64,000 nucleotides of DNA from Clostridiales bacterium (lineage in GTDB: Bacteria > Bacillota > Clostridia > Christensenellales > CAG-314), in assembly GCA_003537755.1 (NCBI GenBank), contig DPQS01000029.1, positions 27,914-91,913 of the forward strand, given 5' to 3'. Below the pieces are notes generated by a model that saw only the letters and a program-made list of their open reading frames with translations, was not told the origin of the DNA and did not search any database. Below, piece after piece: positions 10,336 through 52,032 of the stretch; the first letter of the stretch is position 1; each line of letters begins with the position of its first letter. The translations under genes were made by a program, and so were the position numbers.

Positions 10336-10336
10336 C

Positions 10337-11203: not shown

Positions 11204-11206
11204 AAA

Positions 11207-20059: not shown

Positions 20060-20109
20060 ATTTGTATTTCCGATTATTTTGTATTTCCGATTGTAATGGC
20101 AGTGATCGT

Positions 20110-20976
20110 TCAAAACGTTTTACGAAAATGCCCCGGGGTCGTTCCGTAAGCGTTTTTGAAATAGGTGTTGAAAGAAGCAAGATTCGTAAAACCAACAAAC
20201 TCGGCAATGTCAATCACTTTCATGTCGGTGGTCATAAGCAAGTTTTGTGCGTAACGCAACTTGTAGTTGACCAGAAATTTGTGCGGAGTCGTGCCGAATT
20301 TTTCGTTGAACAGTCGTGTAAGTTGCATGCGGCTGTAATTGAGCAATATGCTGAGATCGGCAATCGAGTAGTGCAGGAACTCCGTCTTTTTCATTGCTTT
20401 GTTCAGTGTTTGTACCCACTGCGGTTGTTCGTTCAGTCGGCCGTAGTCGATAAAGTCAACGCTTTTGCGGTACAAAAACTGCATTACTATCATTACCGCG
20501 CCGCAAAGCAGACCGTCGTACTCTTTGTAGGCGTCATCGGGCAAAAACATCACCTGGTGGATTATCTCTTCCACTTGCGTAGTCAACTCGGCAGGAAAAG
20601 TTTGCTTGCGCGACATTTTTTGCAGTGTGGCGAAGAAACTGTCGGAGAACATATCGGCGAGACGTTTTATCGCCGATTCCCGGGCAATGATGTTGATGTA
20701 TCGTATTTTTTCCGAACCGACTTTCTTCAGGTAGTGGGTATCGGCCGTGGTGGAAAAGAACATTTGCCCTGCCGTTACGGGGATTTTTTGCCCGTTAAGC
20801 ACGTTGTTCAATTTGCCTTCGGTAAGCAATGTAAATTCCCAGTAGTCGTCATGTCCGTGCGTGGTTGTGTAGTCAAATGTGTTGATGTGGTAGGAAAAAT
20901 CGATTTTGTCGATAAAATTCTCCACGCGTTTGCTTGTGATATTGTCGTTGGTAAATTTGTAATCTATCATGATCAC
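20110..20976 (-). CDS. AraC-family transcriptional regulator (cupin-like sensor plus dual HTH)
   Basis: C-terminus: SIADLSILLNYSRMQLTRLFNEKFGTTPHKFLVNYKLRYAQNLLMTTDMKVIDIAEFVGFTNLASFNTYFKNAYGTTPGHFRK. It is divergent from the GH130/ABC operon. Confidence 0.9.
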   Translation of the reverse strand: MIMIDYKFTNDNITSKRVENFIDKIDFSYHINTFDYTTTHGHDDYWEFTLLTEGKLNNVLNGQKIPVTAGQMFFSTTADTHYLKKVGSEKIRYINIIARESAIKRLADMFSDSFFATLQKMSRKQTFPAELTTQVEEIIHQVMFLPDDAYKEYDGLLCGAVMIVMQFLYRKSVDFIDYGRLNEQPQWVQTLNKAMKKTEFLHYSIADLSILLNYSRMQLTRLFNEKFGTTPHKFLVNYKLRYAQNLLMTTDMKVIDIAEFVGFTNLASFNTYFKNAYGTTPGHFRKTF

Positions 20977-21056
20977 ATTATACCTGTTTGTTTGACGGCT
21001 GTCAACGTTCGATGTTTGATTTTTGCTTTATTTTACGGCAAAAATGTTATGTAATG

Positions 21057-21080: not shown

Positions 21081-21199
21081 AAAGTTGTGGCAAATTCGTA
21101 TAGAGTGACGGACTTTGAACATGGTAAAATTTCTACGAAGGGACGATTGTTCGCCGAAAAAGGCACATGTCGTTTCTACGCAGGAAGAGGTGTATAAAT

Positions 21200-22240
21200 A
21201 TGGAACTTAACTTTAAGCGATACGATGGCAATCCGATACTCAGACCAAACCCGCAAAATCAATGGGAAAACTTGTGCGTGCTCAATCCCGCAGTGGTATT
21301 TGACAAGGAAACGAATAAGTTTGTAATGGTGTATCGTGCCGGTGGCGACGAAATAAAACATCACATCAGACTGGGACTGGCAACAAGCGACGACGGATTT
21401 AACTTTGTTCGTTACGCCGACAAACCCGTATTCGACGTGGACGAAAACGACGCCGACGGCGGTTGCGTGGAAGACCCTCGTATTGTAAATATCGACGGCA
21501 TATACTACATGACCTATGCTTCGCGCGCATATGCCCCGGGGCGTTACTGGTTGCCGATTGAACAAAAACGCAAGGAAACGAGCGCGTGGATGCGTCCGCA
21601 TGCCGACACCGAACCGTGGTTTTTGCGTACCAACGAAACCGTTACATATCTTGCCGCAACAAAAGATTTTGTCAGTTACAAACGGCTCGGTCGCATCACC
21701 GACGCAAGGGAAGACGACCGTGACGTAGTGTTGTTTCCACGTAAAATCAACGGCAAATTTTACCGCATATCCCGTCCTGTGTTAAACCGGGACCGCTCGA
21801 TGTGGATTTCGTCAAGCGACGACTTGATGGAGTGGCCGACGCGTGCTAAACTGTATTCGGGGGTGGAACCTTGGGAAAACAGCCGTTTGGGCGCAGGCTG
21901 TCCGCCTATCGAAACGGACGACGGTTGGTTGTTGATTTACCACGGGGTAAACGAAAATGACAAGTGCTACCGCGTGGGACTTATGATGCTGGACAGGGAC
22001 GACCCGTCCAAAATCATTGCGCGTAGTAAAAACTTTGTTTTAGAGCCTACGACGGACTACGAAAAGGACGGTTTGTACGCGGGTTGCGTGTTCCCGACCG
22101 GCGCTGTCGTCAAGGACGGCATCTTGTACGTTTACTACGGTTGCGCCGACAAGTATGTCGCGGTAGTGACGGAAAAATTGCAAAACGTGCTGGACTACAT
22201 GAAACTTCCGCAAAATAAGTGCGAACAGCAGAATGGATAA
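21200..22240 (+). CDS. GH130-family protein (paralog of 18897..19934)
   Basis: I prefer the start at 21200 (GGAAGAGG ~9 nt upstream; MELNFKRYDGNPILRPNP). Motifs: CVLNPAVVFD, GGCVEDPRIVNIDGIYYMTYASRA, GAGCPPIETDDGWLLIYHGV, CVFPTGAVVKDGILYVYYGCAD. Confidence 0.85.
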   Translation: MELNFKRYDGNPILRPNPQNQWENLCVLNPAVVFDKETNKFVMVYRAGGDEIKHHIRLGLATSDDGFNFVRYADKPVFDVDENDADGGCVEDPRIVNIDGIYYMTYASRAYAPGRYWLPIEQKRKETSAWMRPHADTEPWFLRTNETVTYLAATKDFVSYKRLGRITDAREDDRDVVLFPRKINGKFYRISRPVLNRDRSMWISSSDDLMEWPTRAKLYSGVEPWENSRLGAGCPPIETDDGWLLIYHGVNENDKCYRVGLMMLDRDDPSKIIARSKNFVLEPTTDYEKDGLYAGCVFPTGAVVKDGILYVYYGCADKYVAVVTEKLQNVLDYMKLPQNKCEQQNG

Positions 22241-22253
22241 AGGAGTTACTTCG

Positions 22254-23942
22254 ATGAAAAACACAGTAAAAATCATTTCTTTGTTGTTGTGCTTCATGAT
22301 GGTTTTTGCCATTGTCGCAGGATGTCATCGCGACAATAGTGAAGATCAGAAGGTTGACAAAAGCAAAACGCAATTGTACGTCAAGTACTACAACGGCGGT
22401 TTCGGCGACGAGTGGCTCAACCAACTTTGCGCCGAGTTCGAAGCGATGTACGCCGACGCTCACTTTGAAGAAGGTAAGACGGGCGTACAAATAATGAAAG
22501 AGTTTAACCGCGGGCAGCTATCCGGACCTAACGATATGAAGGGCAAGCCTATCAACGTGTATATGATGGAAAACATCGATTACTACACCTACGTTGCAGG
22601 CGGCACAATGCTCGACTTGACCGACGTGGTAAACGACTACGCCGTAACGGGTAAGGATACGAAGGAAACGGAAACCAAGATTGTCAACAAAATCATAGAT
22701 TCTTACGACGAGTTTTTGAACGTATCCGGTAAGTACTACGCTTTGCCGCTGTTTGAAACGTCAATAAACCTCAACTACGACATCGATATGTTTGAGCAAA
22801 GAGGTTTGTATTTTGCAGAAGGTAAAACCGCGGAAGATTTTACCGAAGCGGACTTTGCGGACGAAAGCAAAATATCCGCATTGTTTATCAACAACGCCGA
22901 TGACGCCCGCGCCAACGGGCCCGACGGAAAACCCGACACAAGCGACGACGGTTTGCCCGCAACGTACAAGGATTTCCGCGCATTGACAATCTACATGAAG
23001 ATTACCGGCGTAACCCCGTTTGTATGGAACGGTTACGAAACAGGCTATCTTACCGGTCTTATCAACGACATGTGGGCAAACAACGAAGGTGCGGAGCAAA
23101 TGAAGCTCAACTTCACGTTTGACGGCACGGCAAAAACATTGGTCGAACTTGACAACAACGGAAAAGTCGTCAGAAACGAGGACGGAAGCGTCAAATTGGC
23201 AAATGAAACCACCGTTAACGAAGAAAACAAAAACCTTTTGCAATTGCAAAAAGGCAAACTCGACGCAATGGAATTTGCCAAACTGTTGCTTGACGACGGC
23301 TTGGGCAACAAAAACAGTGCAAACTACTACTCCAAGTCTTTTGACAGCGGTTTCAGCAATATCAATGCACAAAACTACTTCCTGGATCCCGACGGAAACA
23401 ACGTAGATCCTATCGGATTTCTTGTTGATGGCGGATGGTGGTACAACGAGGCAAAGGTGCCCGCCGACCGCAACATCGGTATTTTGCCCCTGCCCAAAAC
23501 GGACGCAAACCAAATCGGCAAACCTAATACCAAGGTGTCCGACCGATCGTCATTTATCTTTGTAAACAACGAAACGACTGCGGCGGTGCAACCCGTTGCC
23601 AAGGCATTTGTAAGTTTCCTTCAAAGCGATTACGCAATGGAAACCTACACCAAGTACACAAATACCTTCCGCGCAATGAAGTACGACTTGTCAACGGAAA
23701 CGCTCAACGTGATGAGCGCGTACGGCAAAAGCGTCTACGCAACTCGCAACAGCGACGATACGACCGTTTTGCCATGGACGCCGATTTCGCAAGTGGCGCG
23801 CAAAAACGCAAGTTTGCTCAGTTACCGCACGTATGGTTTCAGTGTAAACACGCAGGAAAACAATCCGCTGATTTACTTCAAAGATCACGCCAACGCAACT
23901 GCGGTAAGTTACTTCGAGACAATCTGGAATTTCCGTAAGTAG
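22254..23942 (+). CDS. Large (~560 aa) ABC substrate-binding lipoprotein (LplA-like class)
   Basis: I prefer the start at 22254 (AAAGGAG SD; MKNTVKIISLLLCFMMVFAIVAGC carries a lipobox). It is followed by two permeases. It is a paralog of the frameshifted gene at 42462. Confidence 0.85.
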   Translation: MKNTVKIISLLLCFMMVFAIVAGCHRDNSEDQKVDKSKTQLYVKYYNGGFGDEWLNQLCAEFEAMYADAHFEEGKTGVQIMKEFNRGQLSGPNDMKGKPINVYMMENIDYYTYVAGGTMLDLTDVVNDYAVTGKDTKETETKIVNKIIDSYDEFLNVSGKYYALPLFETSINLNYDIDMFEQRGLYFAEGKTAEDFTEADFADESKISALFINNADDARANGPDGKPDTSDDGLPATYKDFRALTIYMKITGVTPFVWNGYETGYLTGLINDMWANNEGAEQMKLNFTFDGTAKTLVELDNNGKVVRNEDGSVKLANETTVNEENKNLLQLQKGKLDAMEFAKLLLDDGLGNKNSANYYSKSFDSGFSNINAQNYFLDPDGNNVDPIGFLVDGGWWYNEAKVPADRNIGILPLPKTDANQIGKPNTKVSDRSSFIFVNNETTAAVQPVAKAFVSFLQSDYAMETYTKYTNTFRAMKYDLSTETLNVMSAYGKSVYATRNSDDTTVLPWTPISQVARKNASLLSYRTYGFSVNTQENNPLIYFKDHANATAVSYFETIWNFRK

Positions 23943-24117: not shown

Positions 24118-25059
24118 ATGACAGGACAAAAGTTAAATGCCGCAAGTGCGGTCAAGAAAAAAATGTCCATGAAGAAGAGCGGAACGCTGTTTTACGTAAC
24201 GATGATTGCGCTTCCGCTGTTGCAGTTTGTGATATTCTACGTAATTGTCAACTTCAACAGTATTCTTATGGCGTTTCAGAATTACGACAACTCTACGGGA
24301 AAGGAAGTAATTACCTTCACCTGGGACAACTTTGCGTACTTTTTCAGCGCAGACGTTGTCGCCGACTTGTGGTTGTGTATCAAAAATTCGTTGATGTACC
24401 TTGCGCTCAACGTCTTTGTCGTCATGCCCGTAAGTTTGCTGTTCAGCTACTACGTGTTCAAAAAGTTTCGTATGGCAAAGTTGTTTAAGGTGATTATGTT
24501 TTTGCCCAGTATAGTTTGTTCTACGGCAATGGTCATCTTTTACAAGTACTACGTCAACGACGCTTTAAGCGGTATGTTCGGCGGACCGGTAATCGGGCCT
24601 ACATTCAATGCGCACCAACAAGGCGTGCTTATCGTGTTCTATTTGTTGATGAGTTTTTCGGGCAACATTTTGTTGTACATCAACGCGATGTGTCAAACGC
24701 CCGAATCGGTAATAGAAGCGGCAAGAATCGACGGCGCAAAGGAAGGACAAATCTTCCTGCACGTGGTTGTTCCGCAAATCTGGGGGACGATTGTGTCGCT
24801 ATTAGTCATCTTCTTTGCATGGGTGGCTACCAACCAGGCTTACTTGTTTACCTTCTACGGTTTCAATGCCAACCGTGAGTATCAGACAATAGGCTACTAC
24901 CTGTTCAACATGGTGCAGGACGGCAGATTTACGAGTTCCGCATTGGAACAAAACTACCGCAAGGCGTCCGCGCTCGGGCTGATGCTGACGCTTATTGTCG
25001 CGCCCGTTACCATTCTTGTCCGCAACCTTATGTTGAAGTACGGACCGAAAGAGGACTAA
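24118..25059 (+). CDS. ABC sugar transporter permease (LplB-like)
   Basis: AAAGGGG SD. EAA loop VIEAARIDGAKEGQIFLHVVVPQI. Multi-span membrane profile. Confidence 0.9.
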   Translation: MTGQKLNAASAVKKKMSMKKSGTLFYVTMIALPLLQFVIFYVIVNFNSILMAFQNYDNSTGKEVITFTWDNFAYFFSADVVADLWLCIKNSLMYLALNVFVVMPVSLLFSYYVFKKFRMAKLFKVIMFLPSIVCSTAMVIFYKYYVNDALSGMFGGPVIGPTFNAHQQGVLIVFYLLMSFSGNILLYINAMCQTPESVIEAARIDGAKEGQIFLHVVVPQIWGTIVSLLVIFFAWVATNQAYLFTFYGFNANREYQTIGYYLFNMVQDGRFTSSALEQNYRKASALGLMLTLIVAPVTILVRNLMLKYGPKED

Positions 25060-25071
25060 GGGAGGCGGCAT

Positions 25072-25983
25072 ATGGCACAAACTAAACTTAAAACTTTCGG
25101 TAAACGCAAACTAAGCGTGTTTGAGTTGATTGTCATGGTGTTGCTCATTGCGTACTGTGTTGCGGTTGTGGCGTTGTTGGTGTGGGGCTTTATGGCTTCC
25201 TTCCGTACCGATCAATCGGTGGCGCAACGTCCGTGGGCGATGTTTGAAGATTTGACGATAGACAACTATCTGGAAGTGTTTGACAACTTCAAAACTTTCA
25301 AATACGTAGACGGCGGCACCCGGACGGTTTACTTCGAGGAAATGTTTCTTAATTCGCTGTTGTATGCGGGCGGCGGAGCATTGATGCAAACGTTGTGTAC
25401 GGCAATAGTTGCGTACCTTACTGCAAAGTACGACAACTTGTGCAGCAAAATAGTGCATTACACGGTAATTGTCACGTTGTCATTGCCCATTGTAGGCAAC
25501 CTGGCAAGTATGTTGCAAATATCCAAGGCTTTGGGGCTGTTCGACAACATTGTCGGGTCGTGGATAATGAAGTTCGGTTTCAACAATATCTACTACCTTA
25601 TTTTCTACGCATTTTTCAAAAAAGTCCCGTGGGAATATGCCGAATCGACATTTCTCGACGGCGGCAATCATTACACGGTGTTTTTCCGTATAATGCTGCC
25701 CCTGGCAATGCCGCTTATCGCGACGGTATTTTTGCTTAACTTTATACAGTACTGGAACGACTTTGAAACGCCGTACATGTTTTTGCCCAACCACACAACG
25801 GCAGGCATAATGCTGTATATGTCCATTATAGGCGGCGGCGGATCATGGTCCGGACCAAGCCCCATACCGCTTACTCCGCAGCTTGCGGCGGCGTTTATGG
25901 TGTTTTTGCCGATATTTGTACTGTTTCTTGTGTTCCGCAACAAAATAATGGGCAACTTGTCCGAAGGAGGTATCAAGGGTTGA
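25072..25983 (+). CDS. ABC sugar transporter permease (LplC-like)
   Basis: GGGAGG SD. EAA-like loop YAESTFLDGGNHYTVFFRIMLPLAMP. Confidence 0.9.
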   Translation: MAQTKLKTFGKRKLSVFELIVMVLLIAYCVAVVALLVWGFMASFRTDQSVAQRPWAMFEDLTIDNYLEVFDNFKTFKYVDGGTRTVYFEEMFLNSLLYAGGGALMQTLCTAIVAYLTAKYDNLCSKIVHYTVIVTLSLPIVGNLASMLQISKALGLFDNIVGSWIMKFGFNNIYYLIFYAFFKKVPWEYAESTFLDGGNHYTVFFRIMLPLAMPLIATVFLLNFIQYWNDFETPYMFLPNHTTAGIMLYMSIIGGGGSWSGPSPIPLTPQLAAAFMVFLPIFVLFLVFRNKIMGNLSEGGIKG

Positions 25984-28900
25984 CGACTACAAAACGTATC
26001 GCTTTATTTGTGTTGTGCTTTGTGTTGGTCGCAAGCGTAGTTGCTTTGGCAATTACTTTTGGCGGCGGCTTCAAGGCATATGCTTCGGACGTGTTCGATT
26101 ACGTCGGGACGATAAAAACGGTCAACGGCTCGATTGAAGGCAACAGACGCGGTTTGCGGTTGTACGGCTACGACAGCGGTGTTACGGCAAACTTCAAAAA
26201 CGCGCAAACCGACGTGTTCGGCGCGGAGTTGCAAATCGGCTCGCACGAAGGCAAGAAGGACCTTAAAAAGTATTCGTTGGTATTTACCGACGTAAAAAGC
26301 GGCAAAAGTTTTGCCGTGCAAGTGGTTTCTTACAGCGACTACAACGATGTAGGCGTTGTGTGCAACGGCAACAAGGGCGGCATTGTGTACTACGAACGTA
26401 AAAACGCCGCATACGGAATGACCGCAGGCTACAACGAAGACGGCGTGTATACAAGGTTTACGTCGGCAATCTGCAATCTGACCTTCGATCCGCAAAGTAT
26501 GCAGGTCAGGGTCAAAGCCGACGACGGTAATTTCCGCGTGGTGTGGGACTTTACCAAGCAATACAACGACGGCAAATTGCTTGCCAATGACCTGCCCGTA
26601 TTCGGAGAGTATACCGTATCGATTGTTTTGGACGAGATTTCGGCAAACAGTCGCGGCGACCTGATGGTTTACACCTTCGGCGGATATTCGCTTGCCGACG
26701 AAACGGTGACATATCGTCCGACAATCTTGTTGCAAAAAGGTCTTAAACCGATTGTCGGTAAACAATTTACTTTACCCGTGGCAAAGGTCACGGACGATGA
26801 CGGCAAGGATGCTTCGGACAAAATAACCGCAACGGTGTACAATGCCGACGGAACGGTGCTTGCCGACAACGTAAAAACGTTTATTCCGCAAAATGCCGAA
26901 ACTATATATGTTTACTACAAGTACACGGACGGACAAACGACCGCCGACTTGTGGTACAAAACGCAAGCGATTACAGAAAGCGACATTACGGCAAAGTTCG
27001 ATTACGACGGCGAGTTGCCCGTCAAGGTGGGCGTAGGTGCAAAAATTACGATACCTTCCGCGACGGTTGCTTCCAATGTGCTTGAAAGCGGCAGTGAAGA
27101 GTGCGTCGTTACTGTAAAAAAAGACGGCGTTGCGGTGGACGGCTACCAAAACATACCGGACGGATTTGTGTACGAAGTCAAGGAACAAGGCAACTACGAA
27201 GTAATTTACGGCGGAAAGACATCTGCCGTGTACAAAACGGATACAAAAACATTTACCGCGGACGAAAAAATGCTTGCGGTAAACGTGGATGCTGTGGAGG
27301 AGTTCGCTTACGGGGCAACGTACAAATTGCCCGTTGCGGAGTTCTGTTTGGGTACAAACAAAACGGAAGTAAATGCAACCGTAACGTATCCTTCGGGCAA
27401 GCAAGCCGACGGCACAATTGCTCTTGACGAAGCAGGCAAGTATACGGTAGGCTACAGTGCGACAATCGACGGAGCAAATTACACGCACGAAGAAACTTTT
27501 GTTGTCAAATTGCCCTATGCCGACAACTTCGACGGCAATGCGGAATATGCGCAAATGCGCGGCAACAATGAGTTTAAGGGCGTCAGACTGTCGCTTGCAA
27601 ACAACCAAACCGTGACATACAACAAGGCTATCGATTTGTCGGATTACACATTTAACGCCGCTACAAACAAGGGCAAAACTCTCCTGGAACTCAACCTCGA
27701 CCCAAAGACAATCGGGTCTGCCGACATCGATTCGCTTTACGTCGTGTTTACCGACAAGTACGATTCGACCAATTACTTCTCGGTGCGCCTGAAGTACTTG
27801 TCGTATTCTCCGCTCAGCACTTTCATTCGTGTACGGTCGAGCAATCAGGCAAGCTGGGTCGGGTACAACTACGACTTTTATTCCTCTGCTCTTCGCGTCG
27901 ATGCGGCGGCGGTGCACGAAGAGGGCGGATTTATCTCGTCTGCATCATTTACTCACAGGCTTGACGAATACGACTTCGGATACGGCTCTTTGAAACTTTA
28001 CTTCGATTACCGGACAAAATGCCTGTATTCGCAACCGTTGTGGCTTACGGGACACAACGACGGCGCTCACCCCGAGTACAACTCGCGCAATGTTCCGTGG
28101 CTTGTGTACGATCTGGACAGTTCCGACAACACGTTGTCCGCAGGTAACAAGCCGTGGGGCGGTTTTACTACGGGCGAGGCATATGTCAGTGTTTATGCCA
28201 AGGGCGTAAGCAGTACGGCGGACGTGTTTATGCTGAACATCGGCGGCGAAGACCTGACAACTCCGCTGTTTGACGATACAAAAGCTCCGACAATTACCGT
28301 AGACGTGGACAAAAACAACGTCCCGTCTGCAAAGGTCGGTTTGCCATACAAAGTGTTTGATTTTACGGCAATCGACGCCGATTCCACAGTGGTAAACAAG
28401 GGCGTTACGGTAACAAACAACGCAACGGGCAAGCAAGTTGCGCTTGACGACAACAATTGCTTTACGCCGATCGAGGGCGAGTACACGCTTGCCTACTATG
28501 CCGTGGACGCATTCGGCTACCGCACCGAAGAAATAATCAACGTAAAGGCAAGTCGCAACGTAGAAACCCCGCAAATTACCGTTTCCGACGGATTGCCGCG
28601 GACAGCTTACTACGGGCAGACAATCACTCTTGCCGATTGCCTGATTACAAAACAAGGTGCAGGCAATGCAGTTGTCGATGTAAAGGTAACTTGCGGCGAC
28701 GTCGAAGTGCCCGTGACAAACGGTAAATTTGTTTGTCTGGGCGCAATCGGAACGTACAACGTTGTTTACACCGTTACCGACTACATCGGTCAAACGGCGC
28801 AGGTAAAGAAGAAAATCATCGTGTCGCTGAGCGACGAATTGCAGTTTGATGAACAGACAATCAGCCTTCCCAAGGCATTTATGCATGGCGACAAGGTGTA

Positions 28901-30206
28901 TTTCGGCGAGTACTCGGCGGTGTACTATGACGCCGACCTGAAACAAATCACCGTGCCTGCAACAATCAGTGTAACGGACGGAGGCGGTACGACTACTGTC
29001 GGTAAAGGGCAAGCCTACACACCTGCCGCAACGGACAGTGTGACGACGGCAAAGGTGGCAATCACATTTGTCGCCGACGGTAAAACGAAAACTATCGAGC
29101 GGGTAATACCCATACACACGGCCAAAAACGGCGACGACTTCATTCAAAGTTACTTTGTGTGCGACAACGCAACGCCGTTTGCAAACAGCAACGGTCTGAC
29201 CTTTGCAAGCTCCGACGGACAGATGAGCTTCTCGTTCGTTCGTCCCGTGTATGCAAGCAATATGATGCTGCGCTTTGTGGCGGACGCAAACAAATTTGCC
29301 GCAAAACGATTCAATGTTGTGTTGACCGACAAATTTGACGGTAAAAAGCAAGTCGCGATTTCCTACACGTTGCAAAGAGGCGTATGGTATTGCTCAGTAA
29401 ACGGCGGAGATGCCGTGGAAACAAGTCTTGACGGCGACGGATATTTGCAACTTAACTACAACAATGCGTCGCATGTGTTTACGGACGGCAACGGACAAGT
29501 GCTCGGCACGGCAGGCGAAATAAACGGTGCAACTTTCAGCGGATTTGAAAGCGGCTACGTTTACGTTGACTGCGCGGTTGAAGGTATCGAGGGCGAAACG
29601 GAAGTCGGCTTGCGTACAATCAACAATCAGACGATCAACAGCGTCAAGCGTGACATGCAGCGTCCTTACGTCAAGGCAGACGGCAAGTACGAAGGCAGGG
29701 TTGCCGCAGGCAGTACCGTCACTTTGCTGTCCGCAACGGCTTACGACGTACTCAACGCTATCGGCGACATCACCGTCAGCGTAAAACTCGGCAACAAAAT
29801 CGTGCTTGAAGAGCAAACTCTTACGGCAGGCAAAAAATTTACCGTAACCGAGTGCGGAACATACACGATTACGTACAAAGTAACCGATTCCGCAAAAAAT
29901 CCGGCTACCGACAAGATAGAGTTTGCCGTGTACGATCCCGTCAAGCCAACGTTGAGTTTCGACGGCGAAATCGCAAGTAAAGCAAAAGTCGGACAAAAAA
30001 TCGATTTGCCCAAGTACACGATAAACGACAACAATCCCGACGGCGTAAAGGTGTATGCGTACATCATGTCGCCCGACGGAACCAAGACAAAAATCGAAGG
30101 TGACACCGTAACATTTTCACAAAAAGGCACATACGTATTAACTTTTTTGGTAACGGACGAACACAACAACGCAACCATGTACAGGTTTGCGGTAACGGTA
30201 AAGTGA
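25980..30206 (+). CDS. 1408-aa secreted Ig-rich protein (conserved N-terminal domain plus many DUF5011/HYR-like Ig repeats)
   Basis: I place the start at the TTG at 25980, with GAAGGAGG 10 nt upstream, overlapping the permease stop (TTGA). The track start 25845 would run through the permease gene. The N-terminus TTTKRIALFVLCFVLVASVVALAI..AYA is a signal or anchor. Repeats follow the pattern D..APTI.V...G.YT..Y.V.D. It is a paralog of 46059..50114. Confidence 0.8.
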   Translation: MTTTKRIALFVLCFVLVASVVALAITFGGGFKAYASDVFDYVGTIKTVNGSIEGNRRGLRLYGYDSGVTANFKNAQTDVFGAELQIGSHEGKKDLKKYSLVFTDVKSGKSFAVQVVSYSDYNDVGVVCNGNKGGIVYYERKNAAYGMTAGYNEDGVYTRFTSAICNLTFDPQSMQVRVKADDGNFRVVWDFTKQYNDGKLLANDLPVFGEYTVSIVLDEISANSRGDLMVYTFGGYSLADETVTYRPTILLQKGLKPIVGKQFTLPVAKVTDDDGKDASDKITATVYNADGTVLADNVKTFIPQNAETIYVYYKYTDGQTTADLWYKTQAITESDITAKFDYDGELPVKVGVGAKITIPSATVASNVLESGSEECVVTVKKDGVAVDGYQNIPDGFVYEVKEQGNYEVIYGGKTSAVYKTDTKTFTADEKMLAVNVDAVEEFAYGATYKLPVAEFCLGTNKTEVNATVTYPSGKQADGTIALDEAGKYTVGYSATIDGANYTHEETFVVKLPYADNFDGNAEYAQMRGNNEFKGVRLSLANNQTVTYNKAIDLSDYTFNAATNKGKTLLELNLDPKTIGSADIDSLYVVFTDKYDSTNYFSVRLKYLSYSPLSTFIRVRSSNQASWVGYNYDFYSSALRVDAAAVHEEGGFISSASFTHRLDEYDFGYGSLKLYFDYRTKCLYSQPLWLTGHNDGAHPEYNSRNVPWLVYDLDSSDNTLSAGNKPWGGFTTGEAYVSVYAKGVSSTADVFMLNIGGEDLTTPLFDDTKAPTITVDVDKNNVPSAKVGLPYKVFDFTAIDADSTVVNKGVTVTNNATGKQVALDDNNCFTPIEGEYTLAYYAVDAFGYRTEEIINVKASRNVETPQITVSDGLPRTAYYGQTITLADCLITKQGAGNAVVDVKVTCGDVEVPVTNGKFVCLGAIGTYNVVYTVTDYIGQTAQVKKKIIVSLSDELQFDEQTISLPKAFMHGDKVYFGEYSAVYYDADLKQITVPATISVTDGGGTTTVGKGQAYTPAATDSVTTAKVAITFVADGKTKTIERVIPIHTAKNGDDFIQSYFVCDNATPFANSNGLTFASSDGQMSFSFVRPVYASNMMLRFVADANKFAAKRFNVVLTDKFDGKKQVAISYTLQRGVWYCSVNGGDAVETSLDGDGYLQLNYNNASHVFTDGNGQVLGTAGEINGATFSGFESGYVYVDCAVEGIEGETEVGLRTINNQTINSVKRDMQRPYVKADGKYEGRVAAGSTVTLLSATAYDVLNAIGDITVSVKLGNKIVLEEQTLTAGKKFTVTECGTYTITYKVTDSAKNPATDKIEFAVYDPVKPTLSFDGEIASKAKVGQKIDLPKYTINDNNPDGVKVYAYIMSPDGTKTKIEGDTVTFSQKGTYVLTFLVTDEHNNATMYRFAVTVK

Positions 30207-30219
30207 CGGGAGGTAAGCA

Positions 30220-32175
30220 ATGAAAAGAGTAATATCGCTTGTATTGACTTTTGTTTTGCTGCTTGCCGTATTTGTCGGTTGCAACGACACGCCCGACAAT
30301 CCCGACACACCGGGCAAACCGCAAATAAACAAAACCGACATCAAAATTGTGGACAACGGCGCGACGGACTACAAAGTGGTCGTTCCTTCCGGTGCAAGCA
30401 GTTTTGTAAATACCGCCGCTTCGGAACTGGTCAATTTTGTCAAGGAAGCTACCGGAGCAACGTTGCCGGTAACTACCGACGGCGAAGAGTTTTCCACTTC
30501 GGCAAAGGTTATTTCCCTCGGCAAAACAACGGTGTTTGACGGTAGCGGAGTCAAATTGACGGAAAAGTTGCGTGAAACGGGCTACGTAATGAAACGCAGG
30601 GGCAACACCCTCATCATCAACGCCAAAGACGACAACGGCATTGTCAGCGCAGTGTACGACATGTTGGGGTACATGCTCGGTCTGGAGTTTTACAGCTACG
30701 ACGAGTATACTCTTGACAAAACGGACACGCTGTACATGCTTGACTTCGATTTGGAGTTTGTGCCGAGTATCGACATGCGCGACATCATGATGCGCTCGTT
30801 AAACACAAACTATCGCCAACGCATGCGTTTGTATGCCGGCAAAGGGTTTGGTCACTGGATTACGTTTGCGCACACGACTACGGGCGCAAGCAACCTTAAA
30901 AACGGCGGTGACGAGTTGTACGGCTTTTTGCCGTTCAGCGTGTATGGCGAAGCGCACAAGGATTGGTACGACGCCTCTCACACGCAATTGTGTTACAGCA
31001 ACGCCGAAATGCGCGCCGAGTTTGTCGAGCAGGTAAAGAAGCGCATTGTCAAAAATCCCGACGGCAAATACCTGATGATCGGACACGAGGACAACTTTGA
31101 AATGTGTCTGTGCGACGATTGCAAGGAGGAACGCACATTGTACGGCGGCTACGGCGGACAGGAATTGCACTTTACAAATCTTGTTGCCGAAGCGGTGGAC
31201 GCCTGGCTCGCCGACAACTATCCCGACCGCGAAATCTTTTACGTGTTTTTCGCATACCAGACTTCGCAAGAGCCGCCGATAAAACGTAAAGTCGAGGACG
31301 GCAAGGAAGTAGGCGTCAAGGACGACAACGGCAAGTATATTCCGCATTACGCGGATCTCAAAATCCGCAAAAACGTAATGGTTATGTATTGCCCGATCGA
31401 CTCGGATTTCAGCAAAGGTTTTTCCGAAACGGAAAACCCCACGCAATACGCTCAGCTAAAGGGGTGGAGTGATATTTATGCGGCGCAAGGGCTGGCAAAC
31501 AACATTATTGTCTGGGGTTACAGTCTTGCCGTGTACAACTACTTTATTCCGTTGTACAACTTCGGCACGTACAAGGCTCACTACAAGTTTTACCGTGACT
31601 GTGGCGTGCATTACATCGACGATCAGGCGTACAGTTCGTCGGGTATTCCGTGTTTCGAAGCAATGCAGATTTACGTACAGTCCAAACTGATGTACGACAC
31701 GTCGCTAAGCTACAACGACCTTTGCTACGACTTTATCGAGCATTACTACGGTCAGGCGGGCGAAACGTTCAAACAGTACTTCGATTACTTCCGCACTTAC
31801 TACGAGTATCTTGCGGAAACAAAGAGTATCAGCGGCAGTATCTGGCAGGAAATGGCAAAGGAGGACTTTTGGCCTACCGAAGTGGTGCAACAACTGATGG
31901 ATTACCTGGACAAGTGCCTTGCCGACATCGAACCGCTCAAGGAAACGGATTATGCTCGTTGGCAAGTGCTTAACGATCGTATTCGTCGCGAACGCCTTAC
32001 GCCGATATTTATGATGTTCAGTTTCCACATGAACGAACTTCCCCATGACAAGCAGGTCGAATATCTTGCCGATATGAAAACCTACACGCAAAAATACGAT
32101 ATTCTGGAAACGCAAGAGTCCAAACGTGACATTTCGACGCTGATCGAAACGTGGGAAACGCAAATCGGAGGTTGA
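30220..32175 (+). CDS. DUF4838-like lipoprotein (putative glycoside-hydrolase-like fold)
   Basis: GGGAGG SD. Lipobox AVFVGC. The N-terminal block IVDNGATDYKVVVP....AASELVNFVKEATGATLPV and the motif CLCDDCKEE are as I recall for DUF4838 proteins. Paralog of 50111..52024. Confidence 0.7.
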   Translation: MKRVISLVLTFVLLLAVFVGCNDTPDNPDTPGKPQINKTDIKIVDNGATDYKVVVPSGASSFVNTAASELVNFVKEATGATLPVTTDGEEFSTSAKVISLGKTTVFDGSGVKLTEKLRETGYVMKRRGNTLIINAKDDNGIVSAVYDMLGYMLGLEFYSYDEYTLDKTDTLYMLDFDLEFVPSIDMRDIMMRSLNTNYRQRMRLYAGKGFGHWITFAHTTTGASNLKNGGDELYGFLPFSVYGEAHKDWYDASHTQLCYSNAEMRAEFVEQVKKRIVKNPDGKYLMIGHEDNFEMCLCDDCKEERTLYGGYGGQELHFTNLVAEAVDAWLADNYPDREIFYVFFAYQTSQEPPIKRKVEDGKEVGVKDDNGKYIPHYADLKIRKNVMVMYCPIDSDFSKGFSETENPTQYAQLKGWSDIYAAQGLANNIIVWGYSLAVYNYFIPLYNFGTYKAHYKFYRDCGVHYIDDQAYSSSGIPCFEAMQIYVQSKLMYDTSLSYNDLCYDFIEHYYGQAGETFKQYFDYFRTYYEYLAETKSISGSIWQEMAKEDFWPTEVVQQLMDYLDKCLADIEPLKETDYARWQVLNDRIRRERLTPIFMMFSFHMNELPHDKQVEYLADMKTYTQKYDILETQESKRDISTLIETWETQIGG

Positions 32176-32176
32176 C

Positions 32177-33586
32177 ATGGCAAAGAAAACAAAAATTATT
32201 CTGATTTGCGCCGCCGCTTTGATTTTGGCAGCGGCAATAGTAACAACGCTGTGTCTGGTGCTTGCCAAGCCGTCCGAAGAAACACCGACGGACAAAACGA
32301 CAATCAGCCTTAACGTAAACGCTTACGCGCTTACCGAAGACGAAACGTTTACAATCGCCGCAACGACCAACTCTACGGACGTAATCAAGTGGACGTCGAG
32401 TAGTCCCGAAGTGGCGTCGGTGTCGTCGCAAGGACGTGTAATAGCAAAGACGGCGGGTGAAACGACAATCACGGCAACGGTTGGCGACGTGTCCGACAGT
32501 TGCAGGGTGCAGGTTGTTGCGGACAATGCGCAAGCGACAATCAAACTTGCTCAGACTACGCTGCGGTTGTCGGTGGCAAGCGGCGCAATGCAAATACAAG
32601 GCACGGTTGTTGGCGGCGACAGTCAACAAACGCTTGCCGAGGCGGGTGCGACTTACGAAACGGACAATGCGTCGGTTGCAACGGTTTCTGCCGACGGCAC
32701 GGTTACGCCGATGTCTGTCGGAAGTACGCTGGTGTTTGTGTCGGCAAACGGTCGCACTAAGACGGTTGCGGTGGAAGTGTACACAATGCTTGTTTCGACC
32801 GCCGAGGATTGGAACGTCATGTTGGGTTTGCCCGGCAACCTTGCGGCACGTTTCTACGTAACAAACGACATCGATTTTTCCGGCGTGACATACAATGCAA
32901 AGACTAATAACGGCGGCGACGTACTGCTCAGTCAAAGTTTCTGCGGTAGTCTTGACGGCGGCGGACACACGATAAGCAACGTTACGTTTGACAGTGCCGT
33001 TTCGTCGCAGTCGCTGTTTGGCACAATGGTGGGTTGCACGCTTACAAACATTGCTTTCAGTAACATTCACTTTACCGCAAGCGGAGCGGCAGGATTGGCA
33101 ATACGAGTTTTGCAACACTACAATGTTGCCGACGAAAACGGCAACGCTACGAGGGAGTTACTGTTTGCTCCGTGCTACGTTACAAATGTTTTCGGAGATT
33201 TTGTCTACGATTACAACGGCGTAAGCGGCATTACCGGCATTTACTACGGCGGCGGTATGGAAAACGTGTTTGTAAATATGCGTATGTCCGACGGCAGCGC
33301 ACTAAACAAAACTACCGATTTTGCCGTTGCAAAGCAAAGCATGATTTGGTCGATGGCGGACCCGAACTGGTTTCCCAACAACTATCTCAACAACGTCGTT
33401 GTCCTTGCCGAACGCGGAGCGGTAAACGCCGCGTGGGACACGACATACGACGGAGCGGGCTTGACAATAAGTCTGTCGGGGCTGCACTGCGTAACTACAA
33501 AAATGGAAGCGGGTTACCTGGTGCGTACGCTGTTTGACAACAATATGTGGACGGTAACGCCTGGACAATTGCCTGAACTGAGATAG
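32177..33586 (+). CDS. Membrane-anchored or secreted protein with two Big_2 Ig-like domains and a GLUG-like / beta-helix-like module
   Basis: N-terminal hydrophobic anchor. Big_2 pattern: W.SSSPEVASVSSQGRVIAKTAGETTITATVG. Then TAEDW...NDIDFSG....FCGSLDGGGHTISNVTF. Confidence 0.75.
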   Translation: MAKKTKIILICAAALILAAAIVTTLCLVLAKPSEETPTDKTTISLNVNAYALTEDETFTIAATTNSTDVIKWTSSSPEVASVSSQGRVIAKTAGETTITATVGDVSDSCRVQVVADNAQATIKLAQTTLRLSVASGAMQIQGTVVGGDSQQTLAEAGATYETDNASVATVSADGTVTPMSVGSTLVFVSANGRTKTVAVEVYTMLVSTAEDWNVMLGLPGNLAARFYVTNDIDFSGVTYNAKTNNGGDVLLSQSFCGSLDGGGHTISNVTFDSAVSSQSLFGTMVGCTLTNIAFSNIHFTASGAAGLAIRVLQHYNVADENGNATRELLFAPCYVTNVFGDFVYDYNGVSGITGIYYGGGMENVFVNMRMSDGSALNKTTDFAVAKQSMIWSMADPNWFPNNYLNNVVVLAERGAVNAAWDTTYDGAGLTISLSGLHCVTTKMEAGYLVRTLFDNNMWTVTPGQLPELR

Positions 33587-41041: not shown

Positions 41042-41977
41042 GTGATTACAGACAAAATACTTACGCTACACATCAACATCCCCAGCGAGCGCGAAAAGAT
41101 TTGCGCCGTAGGCAGGGCATTGTCCGTGCCCGACCGCGTCAGAATATTAAACTTGCTTACCGCGCGTTCGATGAATCTCAACGAGATTTCCAAGGTGTTG
41201 GATATTCCCGTTTCGTCGGTGTCCAACCATATCAACGCTTTGCAGGACGCCGAACTTGTGCTGGTTACCTACCAACCGAGCGCGAAAGGACACGTTAAGT
41301 TGTGCAGCGAGATGGTTTGCATGGTACAAATCAAGCGTGCCACGCCCAAAACTTCGGACAACGACGCATATTGCATGGAAATGCCCGTCGGCATGTACAC
41401 CGACTGCGACATCAAGTCTCCGTGCGGAATGGCAAGCGCGGAAAAACAGCTTTTTGCGCCCGACTCGCCGGAGTACTTCTTTCTGCCCGAGCGCAAAGAT
41501 GCCGAGTTGGTGTGGTTTTCGCACGGGTATGTCAGTTACATGTTCCCGTATTCCTCGCCCGAAGCCAAACCCGTCAACGAAATCAGCTTTTCGTTGGAGT
41601 TGTGTTCGGAGGCGGTGTACTATCGCAACGTGTGGCCCAGCGACATTACCTTTCTGATAAACGACGTCGAAGTGTTGACGTACACATGCCCGGGTGACTT
41701 CGGGGGCAGGAGAGGAGTATACACGCCGGAGTTCTGGCCTGTGTCCAGTTCGCAATTCGGGTTGCTGAAAAAGATTACGGTCAACAAAAGCGGCGCATAC
41801 ATTGACGACCAGCTTGTTTCCAAAGACGTAACGATATCTAGACTAGGCATTGTCGCCGGCAATGCGGTCAAGTTTACCGTTTTGCTGAAAGACGACGCCA
41901 AACACCAGGGCGGAATCAATATTTACGGGAAGCATTTCGGAGATTTTCCGCAAGCTATAATAATGATGATAAGGTAA
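41042..41977 (+). CDS. ArsR/SmtB-type winged-HTH regulator with a ~215-aa uncharacterised C-terminal domain
   Basis: GTG start with GGGAGG 6 nt upstream. HTH: RALSVPDRVRILNLLTARSMNLNEISKVLDIPVSSVSNHINALQDAELV. I cannot assign the C-terminal two thirds to any family. Confidence 0.75.
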   Translation: MITDKILTLHINIPSEREKICAVGRALSVPDRVRILNLLTARSMNLNEISKVLDIPVSSVSNHINALQDAELVLVTYQPSAKGHVKLCSEMVCMVQIKRATPKTSDNDAYCMEMPVGMYTDCDIKSPCGMASAEKQLFAPDSPEYFFLPERKDAELVWFSHGYVSYMFPYSSPEAKPVNEISFSLELCSEAVYYRNVWPSDITFLINDVEVLTYTCPGDFGGRRGVYTPEFWPVSSSQFGLLKKITVNKSGAYIDDQLVSKDVTISRLGIVAGNAVKFTVLLKDDAKHQGGINIYGKHFGDFPQAIIMMIR

Positions 41978-42148: not shown

Positions 42149-42193
42149 ATGAGGAAACTTCTTCGGACAAAAGAGGTTTCCTCATTTTTTTTG
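42149..42193 (+). terminator. Rho-independent terminator after the regulator gene
   Basis: ATGAGGAAACTTCTT-CGGACAA-AAGAGGTTTCCTCAT (one mismatch) followed by TTTTTTTTG. Confidence 0.85.
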
Positions 42194-42461
42194 TTAATTC
42201 TGAACACTGTTTCGATATATCTTCCAAAATTAAGTAACGTTTCCAAAATGTTGAAAACATAACTGTTTAATTTGCCCGAAATATGAATATTCGAGACAGC
42301 TTGAATATGCTACAATATCTTTGGGGAGTTGTACCCTGAAGGCTTTTTGTGCCGTGTTTTGCGAAAAAGGCATTGAATTACAGTGTTTTACTGCCGGTTT
42401 TGCATACTAAAAGCAATCCCAAAATCGGTATTGTCATCTACAAACAATGTGGAGGAAAACA

Positions 42462-44112
42462 ATGAAAAAGAAATTGTCAATGATACTTGCGCTTGTGCTG
42501 ACGCTTTGTCTGGTGTTGTCTTTGTCGGCAGTGCTTGTCGGCTGCGACGACTTGCCCGGCGAGGGCCCCGAAGAAGAAATCGACCCCAACCGTACGCAAT
42601 TGCGCATAGGTAACTACTACGGCGGCTTGGGTGACGGTTGGCTTAACGAGCTTAAACGTCAGTACGAAGAACTGCACCCCGACGTGCAGATACTTATTAC
42701 AAACGACAAACCGTCCTTTACGCCCGACCAACTAAAAAACAGTATTGCCACAGACAAGCACCAACTGTACTTTGTCGAAAAACAATACTATTATGATTTG
42801 GTCAACGACGGCAAATTGGCAGACGTCACGGACGTCGTTACCGAAAAACTTACCAAGTACGGCGAGGACGTGTCGATTGCCGAAAAGATTTCCGACGATA
42901 CCCTGCGTGAATACTACGGAGGCAAAACCACAGGCAACAAGTACTACGGATTGCCCAGTTACATGTCGCACAGCGGAATAGTGTACGACGTGGACTTGTG
43001 GGAGAATAAAGGCTTCTACATTGCAGACGGCTCGACAGACACCAACGTCAAGTACACCAAGGGCGACAACAAGTCGGCAGGTCCTGACGGAATCAAGGGT
43101 ACGCGCGACGACGGTATGCCCGCAACCTACGAACAATTCAAAAAACTTGTCAAAAAGATTACCGCAAGTAACGTTACTCCGTTTATCTGGAGCGGCGGTA
43201 TCGGCGTATACCAGACAATGGCGACGACGGCATGGTGGGCGGACTACGAAGGTTACGACAACTTTTTGCTCAACTACACCTTCAGCGGCAGTTACACCTT
43301 TGACGGCGACAGCACGCCTACGCAAATCACCGAAGAAAACGCCTATATGTTGCAAAAACAAAAGGGCAAAAAGTACGCTTTGCAGTTTGCCAAGGACCTT
43401 GTAACCAACCCCAACAACTACACGCTGAGCAGTGGCGGTACCACCAAGGACCACCTTGGCGCACAGTACGAATTTATCAAGAGCTACCCTTCGTCGCAGC
43501 CCGTGGCAATGATTCTGGAGTCCGACTGGTGGGAAAACGAAGCGCGCAACAACAACGCGTTTTCCGACATGGTTCCCAAGTACGGCGAAAAGTGGGCTTA
43601 TGTATGGCACGCGTAGGTTTGCGTATATGCCCGTACCTAAGACTACGGGTTCGGCGCAAGGTGAAACGGTTTTGTCCACTTCGGCGACATGCTGTTTCTT
43701 CATCAATGCCAACGCAGGCGACAAAATGGATCTGGCAAAAGATTTTTACCAATTTTGCCATACGGAAAACTCTTTGCGCGTGTTCAATGCCTACACGGGT
43801 ATGTGCCGTCCGTTTAATTACACCCTTACCGACGAACAGTACGAAGGTCTGACGTATTTTTCCAAGTATATTTACGATATGTACAAAGGCGAAAACCCCG
43901 CAAAAGTCATCTACGACATCGGTTTGTGCAACACTCGTCTGAGTGACGTCACCTACTTCCGTGACAGATGGGAGTGGAACGCCAACGTCGGCAGTGTTCC
44001 GTACGACAACCCGTTTAAGGCTTTTGCTTCGGACAGTTCGCTGACCGTGGAAAGCTACTTCAACGGCTTGTTCAAGTACCATTCGGAAAACTGGTCGCGT
44101 TTCGGGTTATAA
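42462..44112 (+). pseudogene. Frameshifted LplA-like substrate-binding lipoprotein gene (paralog of 22254..23942)
   Basis: GGAGGA SD. MKKKLSMILALVLTLCLVLSLSAVLVGC carries a lipobox. Frame A stops at 43616 (..KYGEKWAYVWHA*). The homologous continuation (RRFAYMPVPKTTGS.., matching NIGILPLPKTDANQ in the paralog) is in frame +1, which is open from 43513 to 44112. Confidence 0.8.
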
Positions 44113-52024: not shown

Positions 52025-52032
52025 GGTGCAAC

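Follow-up and report, generated by a model that had tools for sequence, protein, structure and literature searches.

The 64,000-nucleotide stretch of DNA examined here (the window; positions 27,914 to 91,913 of contig DPQS01000029.1 in assembly GCA_003537755.1, from a Clostridiales bacterium) carries two genes for very large proteins, each located immediately downstream of a pair of ABC transporter permease genes. We call the products giant A (25980-30206, 1408 aa) and giant B (46059-50114, 1351 aa). The two proteins are paralogs over their full length (26% identity, BLASTP E 2e-58), and they belong to a large, previously undescribed family built from an all-beta module whose three copies, here termed D1, D2, and D3, are carried on immunoglobulin (Ig)-like spacers. 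In every locus examined, the gene for the giant is part of a conserved five-gene core that encodes a substrate-binding protein (SBP), two permeases, the giant, and a DUF4838 protein. We judge the chance to be about even that the giants are secreted, non-catalytic, multi-module glycan-capture proteins that serve the DUF4838 enzyme and the ABC importer. This function is favored because the proteins are predicted to be exported, carry three modules on Ig-like spacers, have no catalytic domain recognized by Pfam, and share a conserved set of Asp, Asn, and Trp residues in D2.

Modular architecture and family of the giant proteins

Each giant is composed of a signal peptide followed by D1, three Ig-like domains, D2, three Ig-like domains, D3, and two Ig-like domains, and thus represents a triplicated unit of one module with its Ig spacers. 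This architecture is evident because the D modules are homologous to one another, the Ig blocks are homologous in register, and AlphaFold2 (AF2) models exhibit the corresponding strand pattern. Specifically, hhalign comparisons match D1 to D2 (97%, E 1.6e-11) and D2 to D3 (96%, E 1e-8), and they place Ig-like domains 1-3 in register with domains 4-6 (99% over 234 columns), with both blocks also aligning with domains 7-8. The AF2 models of the two halves of giant A, which were built from 27-sequence alignments, are all-beta, with pLDDT values of 84 for the N-terminal half and 92 for the C-terminal half. Each D module in these models spans approximately 200-260 residues and forms roughly 14-16 strands, and the eight Ig-sized beta domains of giant A are arranged 3+3+2.

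A previous interpretation of this DNA made without database searches (the sequence-only reading) had described a shared N-terminal domain, a second conserved region, and a series of Ig domains of the DUF5011/HYR type. The shared motifs on which it relied are present in the consensus of 27 sequences (SLVFTD..S.KSF.V, GYN..GVYT, FDP..M.V, YTVS.VFD, and N.TVTY...ID), and both conserved regions are real. However, they are not distinct regions but copies of one module, of which a third copy exists. Similarly, the presence of Ig-like domains is upheld by the eight such domains in the model of giant A, but their assignment to particular families is weak. The family PF16403 (Bact_surface_Ig-like), of which we take DUF5011 to be the earlier Pfam name, gives 27.8 bits with giant A relative to a cutoff of 27, with no single stretch passing, and 19.4 bits with giant B. 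Homologs often bear a precomputed PF16403 label. Pfam revealed no HYR match at E<=0.01 in either giant, and NCBIfam models applied to the whole proteins yielded only a sub-threshold match of the OmpL47 type.

The N-terminal domain had been considered distinctive, and indeed it has no relevant match to a lectin or enzyme family in Pfam, in NCBIfam, or among PDB sequences. When D1, D2, and D3 of both giants were scanned singly against Pfam at E<=10, nothing relevant was recovered, and 18 diverse D2 segments revealed no recurrent weak Pfam family. Searches of PDB sequences by phmmer and by profile hmmsearch gave no match for D1 or D2 and only spurious matches for D3. The giants also do not match SBP_bac, BPD_transp_1, or ABC_tran, and the SBP and the two permeases are encoded by separate neighboring genes. 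Foldseek searches were conducted with both AF2 half-models against the PDB, and with the N-terminal half also against BFVD, using these multi-domain structures as queries. The matches include contactin, complement C3/C5, the Sap and SbsB S-layer proteins, the SraP adhesin, GhpA, SGBP-B, and phage fibers. The strand counts of the D modules are compatible with a two-sheet jelly roll like that of ConA (13-15 strands), and the modeled D modules might adopt this fold. Other large proteins encoded in the window were considered as paralogs and rejected, given that no D module was found in the products of 382-4629, 4652-7891, and 11207-14230, in either Big_2 protein, or in the Cadherin-like and Flg_new proteins.

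Among orthologs, conservation is highest in D1 and D2 (mean identity 65-70% and 61-69%, respectively) and lowest in Ig-like domains 1-3 (39-55%). The most conserved positions of D2 are D592 (100%), N598 (94%), D676 (95%), D711 (95%), D713 (82%), and W726 (94%), and G728 and F729 are conserved as well. In the AF2 model, the Asp/Asn/Trp set is located at strand ends or in loops. Analysis of conservation across the family revealed no conserved Glu or His in D2. A different set of residues is conserved in D3 (D1117, F1186, G1188, F1189, Q1217, and D1225), and the acidic cluster of D2 is not common to D1 and D3.

The family is considerably larger than simple searches indicate. An exhaustive hidden Markov model search with a seven-sequence D2 profile recovered 1,826 representatives of clusters formed at 50% identity at E<=1e-3, 1,518 at E<=1e-10, and 288 at E<=1e-30. 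In contrast, word-indexed searches returned only 38 relatives, all unannotated and approximately 1,000-1,430 aa in length, and such a search with an 18-sequence D2 profile returned only five fragments. Among 212 retrieved sequences, which are a biased sample, the D1-D2-D3 arrangement is present in 102 and D2-D3 in 72. Wherever the source provides a name, it is always “hypothetical protein,” and no description of the family was found in the literature on DUF4838, PF16126, GH163, and the surface-binding proteins of Gram-positive polysaccharide utilization loci (gpPULs). The hosts are metagenome-assembled genomes (MAGs) labeled as Clostridia, Clostridiales, Christensenellaceae / Candidatus Borkfalkiaceae, or Bacilli. 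A genome scan with an alignment of the A subfamily, which reaches close relatives only, identified exclusively MAGs of uncultured Clostridia or Firmicutes, most of them labeled as human gut samples (Hadza, Nepal, HGM, UMGS).

Nineteen members with unusual length or architecture were inspected for additional Pfam domains. These were found to be only of Ig type (Big_2, PF16403, YDG, Flg_new), aside from one GH20C C-terminal domain, and none of the 19 carries a catalytic or anchor domain. The GH20C case is P0147, a metagenomic protein of 591 aa that has a D2-like module at aa 44-272 (E 1e-35) and Glyco_H_20C_C at aa 395-575. This is the sole Pfam domain of a glycosidase family found in the family proteins scanned.

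Gene order, junctions, and predicted surface location

A DUF4838 gene is located directly downstream of the giant homolog in all 26 fetched loci. The gene for permease 2 is upstream in 24 of the 24 loci that include upstream sequence, and directly so except in L022 and L023, where one small gene intervenes. Permease 1 and an SBP of approximately 545-590 aa precede permease 2 wherever the contig extends far enough, and loci L027 and L028 exhibit the same core order. Thus, the question raised by the sequence-only reading of whether homologs elsewhere are also linked to permease genes can be answered affirmatively for all 24 loci, plus L027 and L028. Even remote relatives with 19-25% identity retain the order, including P0017 (25%), P0038 (24%, with one small gene inserted), P0056 (of the class of about 1,000 aa), and P0019.

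The enzymes that flank the core are variable. They comprise GH130, GDSL, Cadherin-like, and GH20 proteins for A-type loci and Flg_new and GtaA-like proteins for B-type loci, and elsewhere GH3, GH78, and a GFO oxidoreductase (L022), GH43 (L026), or GH38, GH42, and GH109 (L028). A Big_2/HL_N-beta protein is usually encoded next after the DUF4838 gene. In L028, the Big_2/HL_N-beta gene (10001-12379, P0193) itself encodes D2-like modules and lies downstream of two tandem DUF4838 genes. D modules are therefore common to the “giant” and “Big_2” positions. This gene is followed by one for a further 767-aa protein (12559-14862), which on the basis of its length may be the D-module protein P0104, and then by the GH38, GH42, and GH109 genes.

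The junctions between the permease and giant genes are precisely as the sequence-only reading had described them. The TTG start codon of giant A (25980-25982) shares bases with the permease 2 stop codon TGA (25981-25983), the ATG of giant B (46059-46061) likewise overlaps a TGA (46060-46062), and at each junction a GGAGG Shine-Dalgarno (SD) sequence resides within the permease coding sequence, 9 nt upstream of the start. Both open reading frames (ORFs) extend in frame upstream of these starts, to 25845 for giant A and to 45969 for giant B. The overlapping starts are supported because ortholog junctions share both the overlap and the N-terminus. In 13 of 16 compared junctions, the NTGA overlap likewise contains an ATG, GTG, or TTG, and the N-terminus that begins there is again of the MTxxKR/MKKK type, basic and then hydrophobic. 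The GGAGG sequence is also kept across orthologous junctions. It is contained in the Gly-Gly codons of a permease C-terminus of the form ..GG(I/L)KG, and the third permease of the window ends in ..TTGIKG*. The E. coli protein MalG has a C-terminus similar to these permease ends, and therefore the motif appears to be a permease family feature that happens to encode an SD.

From these junctions, it had been proposed that the giants are produced in stoichiometric amounts with the transporter. The junctions and synteny support a shared operon of the giant and permease genes and a probable translational coupling between them, and no + strand terminator-like sites beyond chance were found inside cassette A or B, as the two gene sets are called below. 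The inference regarding stoichiometry, however, does not hold. When ORF coordinates are compared, roughly one in three neighboring pairs of + strand genes in the window shows an overlap of 4-20 nt (e.g., 18227/18230, 50111/50114 for giant B/DUF4838, and 52021/52024 for DUF4838/Big_2). The NTGA overlap is retained in closer relatives and shrinks to 1 nt in L004 and L019, but remote members have a gap of 11-50 nt (L026, L006, and L024) or an intervening gene (L022). Translational coupling makes a gene dependent on translation of the upstream gene, and does not fix a molar ratio. Such coupling is commonplace here and is uninformative on stoichiometry. The start/stop overlap with its internal SD is ordinary operon compaction that secures co-expression and not a set ratio. 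This tempers any over-reading of such overlaps, which are routine operon architecture and no evidence for a transporter subunit.

The N-termini of the giants resemble Sec signal peptides, with Lys/Arg residues, a hydrophobic core, and small residues at the end (A, ..GGGFKAYA|SD; B, ..NVNVGAA|VF). Both subfamilies keep small residues of AxA type at the putative cleavage site, whereas identity elsewhere in the signal peptide falls to 20-40%, and this pattern suggests that the peptides are cleaved by signal peptidase I. Retention through the N-terminal hydrophobic segment, one of two options that the sequence-only reading had offered, is unlikely given this resemblance to a cleavable type-I signal peptide with a conserved AxA-type site. 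Its conclusion that a wall anchor is lacking is confirmed, given that LP.T[GAS] is absent from the last 80 residues of A, B, and 25 homologs, Pfam reveals no SLH or wall-binding domain, and both proteins end right after the last Ig-like domain. In neither giant does the signal peptide end in a lipobox of the form [LVI][ASTVI][GAS]C, and some B-type homologs carry ..LITAC there. Among 191 family members longer than 800 aa, crude patterns identified a signal-peptide-like N-terminus in 182, a lipobox-like sequence in 39, and a C-terminal transmembrane (TM) anchor in one. Neighboring surface proteins (the SBPs, both DUF4838 proteins, the Big_2 protein of cassette B, and the Cadherin-like and Flg_new proteins) do carry L-x-x-C lipoboxes.

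The giants may instead be retained at the surface by partner proteins. This is hinted at by the small gene between permease 2 and the giant homolog in L022 (9265-9999), and by P0037. The former encodes a 244-aa protein with two Ig-like domains that are homologous to the C-terminal Ig pair of the giant (96.5%), followed by a C-terminal TM anchor; the latter carries a similar anchor fused to its C-terminus. The two ends (..STSCMG..(TM)..RKRKEEK for the L022 protein and ..SSGCSGD..(TM)..RKKENE for P0037) look like a Cys-containing C-terminal membrane anchor or sorting signal, for which no NCBIfam model was found.

Proposed glycan capture and its alternatives

DUF4838 (PF16126) is the catalytic domain of families GH163 and GH185, of which the former was founded by BT1035, an enzyme that cuts within complex N-glycans and whose C-terminal F5/F8 domain is a proposed carbohydrate-binding module (CBM), and the latter by the 6-sulfo-GlcNAcase Sp_0475 (PMC10570127). 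Both DUF4838 proteins of the window exceed the PF16126 cutoff of 26.6 bits. However, Pfam reveals only GH67N-like and DUF4838 regions in these proteins and no CBM. A binding partner provided in trans would fill this gap.

We propose that the giant would be exported by the Sec pathway, lose its signal peptide, and be held near the surface by non-covalent contacts, for example with its lipoprotein neighbors or the wall. The D modules, spaced away from the membrane by the Ig-like domains, would bind a complex glycan, with the Asp/Asn/Trp cluster of D2 as the candidate site, possibly in a Ca2+-dependent manner. The bound glycan would then be cleaved by the adjacent lipid-anchored enzyme of the GH163/GH185 type, and the resulting oligosaccharides would pass to the lipoprotein SBP, through the ABC importer, and on to cytoplasmic GH130, GH20, GH29, and GH1 enzymes. 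In this scheme, the binding itself, its dependence on Ca2+, the way in which the giant stays at the surface, and the glycan that it captures are all inferred.

Several points weigh against this proposal. No CBM or lectin family in Pfam or among PDB sequences was found to be related in sequence to the D modules. Foldseek matched only generic Ig/beta-sandwich chains with TM-scores <0.25, and none of its matches picked out a D module specifically. Instead of coordinating a metal or a sugar, the invariant Asp residues of D2 could serve in catalysis, and the conserved synteny could in part reflect shared descent of one ancestral operon. Moreover, a cleaved giant for which no anchor was found might simply diffuse away.

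One alternative is that the giant is itself an enzyme, in which one or more D modules form a novel beta-sandwich hydrolase or lyase responsible for the initial endo-cut, with the DUF4838 protein acting afterwards. Four highly conserved Asp residues are available in D2 (D592, D676, D711, and D713), the gene is always found within glycan-degrading operons, and a module of no known family leaves an activity compatible with the homology results. Beta-jelly-roll enzymes are common. The family GH16 is described in this way in PMC6827312. However, D2 offers no conserved Glu or His, D1 and D3 do without its acidic cluster, and the module is never fused to, and never replaces, a catalytic domain in the 19 varied members. 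Three tandem copies on Ig-like spacers would also be a layout more typical of binding modules. We consider a catalytic role unlikely. Another possibility is that the giant is a docking or scaffold subunit that joins the DUF4838 protein, the Big_2 protein, and/or the SBP-permease complex by protein contacts, and binds no glycan. Conservation that peaks in the D modules and not in the terminal Ig pair argues against this role, which we regard as improbable, even though the giant, alone among the surface proteins of the cassette, has neither a lipid nor a TM anchor and therefore depends on partners for its retention. Its invariant position between the permease and DUF4838 genes would also suit a scaffold, as would the separate anchored two-Ig protein of L022, the fused anchor of P0037, and the Big_2-type gene with D modules in L028. 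Docking of this kind is nonetheless compatible with glycan capture and not exclusive of it.

Structural resemblance might instead suggest a host or particle adhesin that resides in the operon merely for co-regulation, given the tandem Ig-like domains and the occurrence of adhesins and S-layer proteins (SraP, 4m00; Sap, 6qx4; GhpA) among the Foldseek neighbors. But the five-gene order is kept over highly divergent cassettes with varying enzyme sets, which argues that the role is tied to the importer and the DUF4838 protein, not to a particular host ligand. The lack of an adhesin-type wall anchor also makes this explanation quite doubtful. The idea of a stoichiometric partnership between giant and transporter, with the overlap enforcing 1:1 production, draws on the NTGA overlap and internal SD at both paralogs and on the conservation of the overlap in most of the compared junctions. 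With overlaps so frequent in the window, with gaps or an extra gene in remote homologs, and with an SD that coincides with the conserved Gly-Gly motif of the permease C-terminus, we view this idea as very improbable.

If the giants do capture glycans, then their closest functional counterparts would be the surface glycan-binding proteins (SGBPs) of Bacteroidota, such as those that are SusE/SusF-like. Both are extracellular proteins with tandem Ig-like or beta-sandwich domains, encoded within a glycan locus beside a transporter and a surface endo-glycosidase, and both diverge in sequence between loci; SGBPs are non-catalytic, as the giants are predicted to be. The SGBP-B structure from B. ovatus (6e57) is matched by the C-terminal half of giant A with a Foldseek E of 2e-9, but with a TM-score of only 0.13-0.19. 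In contrast to SGBPs, which are outer-membrane lipoproteins of diderm bacteria that operate with a SusC/D TonB-dependent transporter, the giants lack a lipobox, occur in monoderm Clostridia, and are linked to an ABC importer. They are also three to four times larger and carry three copies of a module without a sequence relative. No families of the SusC or SusD type were found in Pfam scans of the long ORFs of the window or in the Pfam labels of the fetched loci. By analogy, the probability that the giants are a Gram-positive functional analogue of Bacteroides SGBPs seems to us evenly balanced, with lipidation and SusC/D linkage setting them apart from that class.

The DUF4838 partner is in the same Pfam family as BT1035 of B. 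thetaiotaomicron, but BT1035 has its own proposed CBM, whereas binding here would be provided by a separate 150-kDa protein encoded directly upstream. SraP (4m00), Sap (6qx4), and SbsB (4aq1) are beta-sandwich chains on Gram-positive surfaces that are matched with a Foldseek probability of 1.0, but with identities of 10-14% and TM-scores of 0.13-0.24. The giants also differ from them in the absence of LPXTG and SLH sequences and in a context that is nutritional rather than one of the cell envelope. SraP includes a lectin module and cadherin-like modules. To our knowledge, substrate capture in described gpPULs involves enzyme-fused CBMs and the SBP. The present loci have the regulator, ABC transporter, and glycoside hydrolases by which a gpPUL is defined (PMC13543919), but a giant non-catalytic protein fixed between permease and glycosidase genes was not found in that 2026 review or in the other literature searched. 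What is new here is the module family and its conserved cassette, given that surface glycan capture itself is a known theme.

Cassettes, candidate substrates, and implications

Features of the two cassettes are listed in Table 1. Cassette A includes three GH130 genes and genes for GH29, a GDSL esterase, GH20, and GH1. It is preceded by a divergently oriented AraC-family gene whose promoter perfectly matches TTGACA-17-TATAAT (21005->20977, minus strand), and which is found at a matching position in L001 and L004. A + strand ORF between two GH130 genes (20062-21054) matches no family and is probably spurious. Cassette B includes an HTH_5 regulator gene, two permease genes, an SBP gene, and genes for DUF4838, GH20, and GH32 proteins. 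The strongest terminator-like site of the region (42149-42185, + strand; a 15-bp stem followed by a T run) lies between the HTH_5 and SBP genes, which suggests that the regulator is transcribed separately from the operon that is probably under its control.

Table 1. Coordinates of the giant genes, their domains, and the surrounding features of cassettes A and B
Feature	Position	Strand	Evidence
AraC-family regulator, divergent from cassette A	20110..20976	-	NCBIfam ChbR/RhaS-type, E 5e-16
GH130 phosphorylase, first gene of cassette A operon	21167..22240	+	Pfam Glyco_hydro_130, E 8e-56
SBP lipoprotein, cassette A, 569 aa, divergent	22233..23942	+	Lipobox AIVAGC; weak NgcE-type match; synteny
ABC permease 1, cassette A	24118..25059	+	Pfam BPD_transp_1
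ABC permease 2, cassette A	25072..25983	+	Pfam BPD_transp_1; end ..LSEGGIKG*
SD GGAGG for giant A	25966..25970	+	9 nt before TTG
Giant A	25980..30206	+	Signal peptide, D1, 3 Ig-like, D2, 3 Ig-like, D3, 2 Ig-like
Giant A signal peptide, aa 1-35 (..KAYA|SD)	25980..26084	+	Homolog N-terminal alignment; putative cleavage site
Giant A D1, aa 36-248, ~14 strands	26085..26723	+	AF2 secondary structure, hhalign to D2
Giant A Ig-like 1-3, aa 249-507	26724..27500	+	AF2; in-register homology to Ig-like 4-6
Giant A D2, aa 508-768, family hallmark	27501..28283	+	hhalign, family profile, conservation
Giant A Ig-like 4-6, aa 769-1039	28284..29096	+	AF2, hhalign; best PF16403 match aa 920-948
Giant A D3, aa 1040-1230	29097..29669	+	hhalign to D2 96%, AF2
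Giant A Ig-like 7-8, aa 1231-1408, protein end without anchor	29670..30203	+	AF2, hhalign
DUF4838 (GH163/GH185-type) lipoprotein, cassette A	30220..32175	+	PF16126 E 1.4e-45 (156 bits), Glyco_hydro_67N; lipobox AVFVGC
Big_2 / HL_N-beta surface protein, cassette A	32177..33586	+	Pfam; N-terminal TM segment
HTH_5 (ArsR-type) regulator upstream of cassette B	41042..41977	+	Pfam; matching position in L019
SBP lipoprotein gene, cassette B, frameshifted near 43602	42447..44112	+	Ortholog comparison
ABC permease 1, cassette B	44221..45141	+	Pfam BPD_transp_1
ABC permease 2, cassette B	45145..46062	+	Pfam BPD_transp_1; end ..LTVGGLKG*
SD GGAGG for giant B	46045..46049	+	9 nt before ATG
Giant B	46059..50114	+	Paralog of A; D1 46149-46934, D2 47490-48167, D3 48966-49568
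DUF4838 lipoprotein, cassette B	50111..52024	+	PF16126 E 4.4e-53 (181 bits); lipobox TMLFAC; 4-nt overlap with giant B
Big_2 surface lipoprotein, cassette B	52021..54834	+	Pfam, lipobox; 4-nt overlap with DUF4838 gene

The SBPs of these cassettes are unusually long at 543-590 aa (e.g., 22233-23942 in the window, L001 6365-8065, and L022 5605-7371). They have no Pfam match, and only their first ~190 residues weakly match models for sugar SBPs of the NgcE/CPR_0540 type, such that from their sequences they look like a divergent, cassette-specific SBP subfamily. In cassette B, a 4-nt insertion breaks the SBP gene into two ORFs, with the junction at approximately 43598-43606. The sequence at this site is GCTTATGTATGGC in the window and GCTTACGGC in the close relative L027, and the change resembles a tandem duplication of TATG/TGTA. 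Orthologs in L019 and L027 encode an intact SBP of 543-548 aa, and the gene is split also in L015 and L024. Either the importer of this strain is without its binding protein, or the frameshift is an assembly error.

Complex N-glycans were first assumed to be the substrate of cassette A on the basis of its GH130, GH20, GH29, and DUF4838 genes. This was withdrawn as a firm claim because the GH130 protein encoded next to the SBP is nearest to β-1,2-mannoside phosphorylases. Its closest solved relatives are β-1,2-oligomannan and β-1,2-mannobiose phosphorylases (9fj8, 1.5e-60; 7fip; and 5b0p, Lin0857), and it is far more distant from UhgbMP (5e-28), which acts on the Man-β-1,4-GlcNAc of N-glycans. 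Judging from this similarity, cassette A may target β-1,2-mannosides, for example those of fungal mannan, rather than N-glycans. A glycan that contains β-mannoside and GlcNAc is a candidate substrate.

A third SBP-permease-permease set in the window is accompanied by large proteins that are unrelated to the giants. Upstream of this set are genes for two very large lipoproteins (382-4629, 1415 aa; 4652-7891, 1079 aa), of which the first has no Pfam match and the second only marginal, sub-threshold matches of the Ig/PKD type. The 1079-aa protein carries a Cys-rich stretch directly after its lipobox (..HECRHVCPECQKCTDITCKDPVCADKCKG..). Downstream of the third permease pair is a gene (11207-14230) whose 1007-aa product lacks a signal peptide.

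Far less is understood about how gut Firmicutes forage for glycans than about the Sus-like systems of Bacteroides, and the lineages that carry the cassette are known only from MAGs, which derive from human gut samples (Hadza, Nepali, and others) and from further metagenomes. The D module is a candidate for a new CBM family that comprises about 1,800 unannotated clusters, and the giants may explain how DUF4838 enzymes without a Pfam-detectable CBM find their substrates. Its invariant linkage to an ABC importer and a DUF4838 gene also makes the D-module family an easy marker by which one class of Gram-positive glycan-utilization loci can be recognized in genomes. It is also conceivable, although we would not expect it, that the giant assembles with the DUF4838 lipoprotein and the Big_2 protein into a surface complex docked over the SBP-dependent ABC importer, as a monoderm counterpart of the SusCD “utilisome.” If so, the partner proteins would hold the giant, which has no anchor of its own, and captured glycan chains would move from it to the enzyme and on to the SBP. 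In that case, the five-gene core would be diagnostic of an unrecognized, widespread glycan-uptake machine that is built on a new binding-module family and that spans uncultured Clostridia (Christensenellales/Borkfalkiaceae-like) and some Bacilli.

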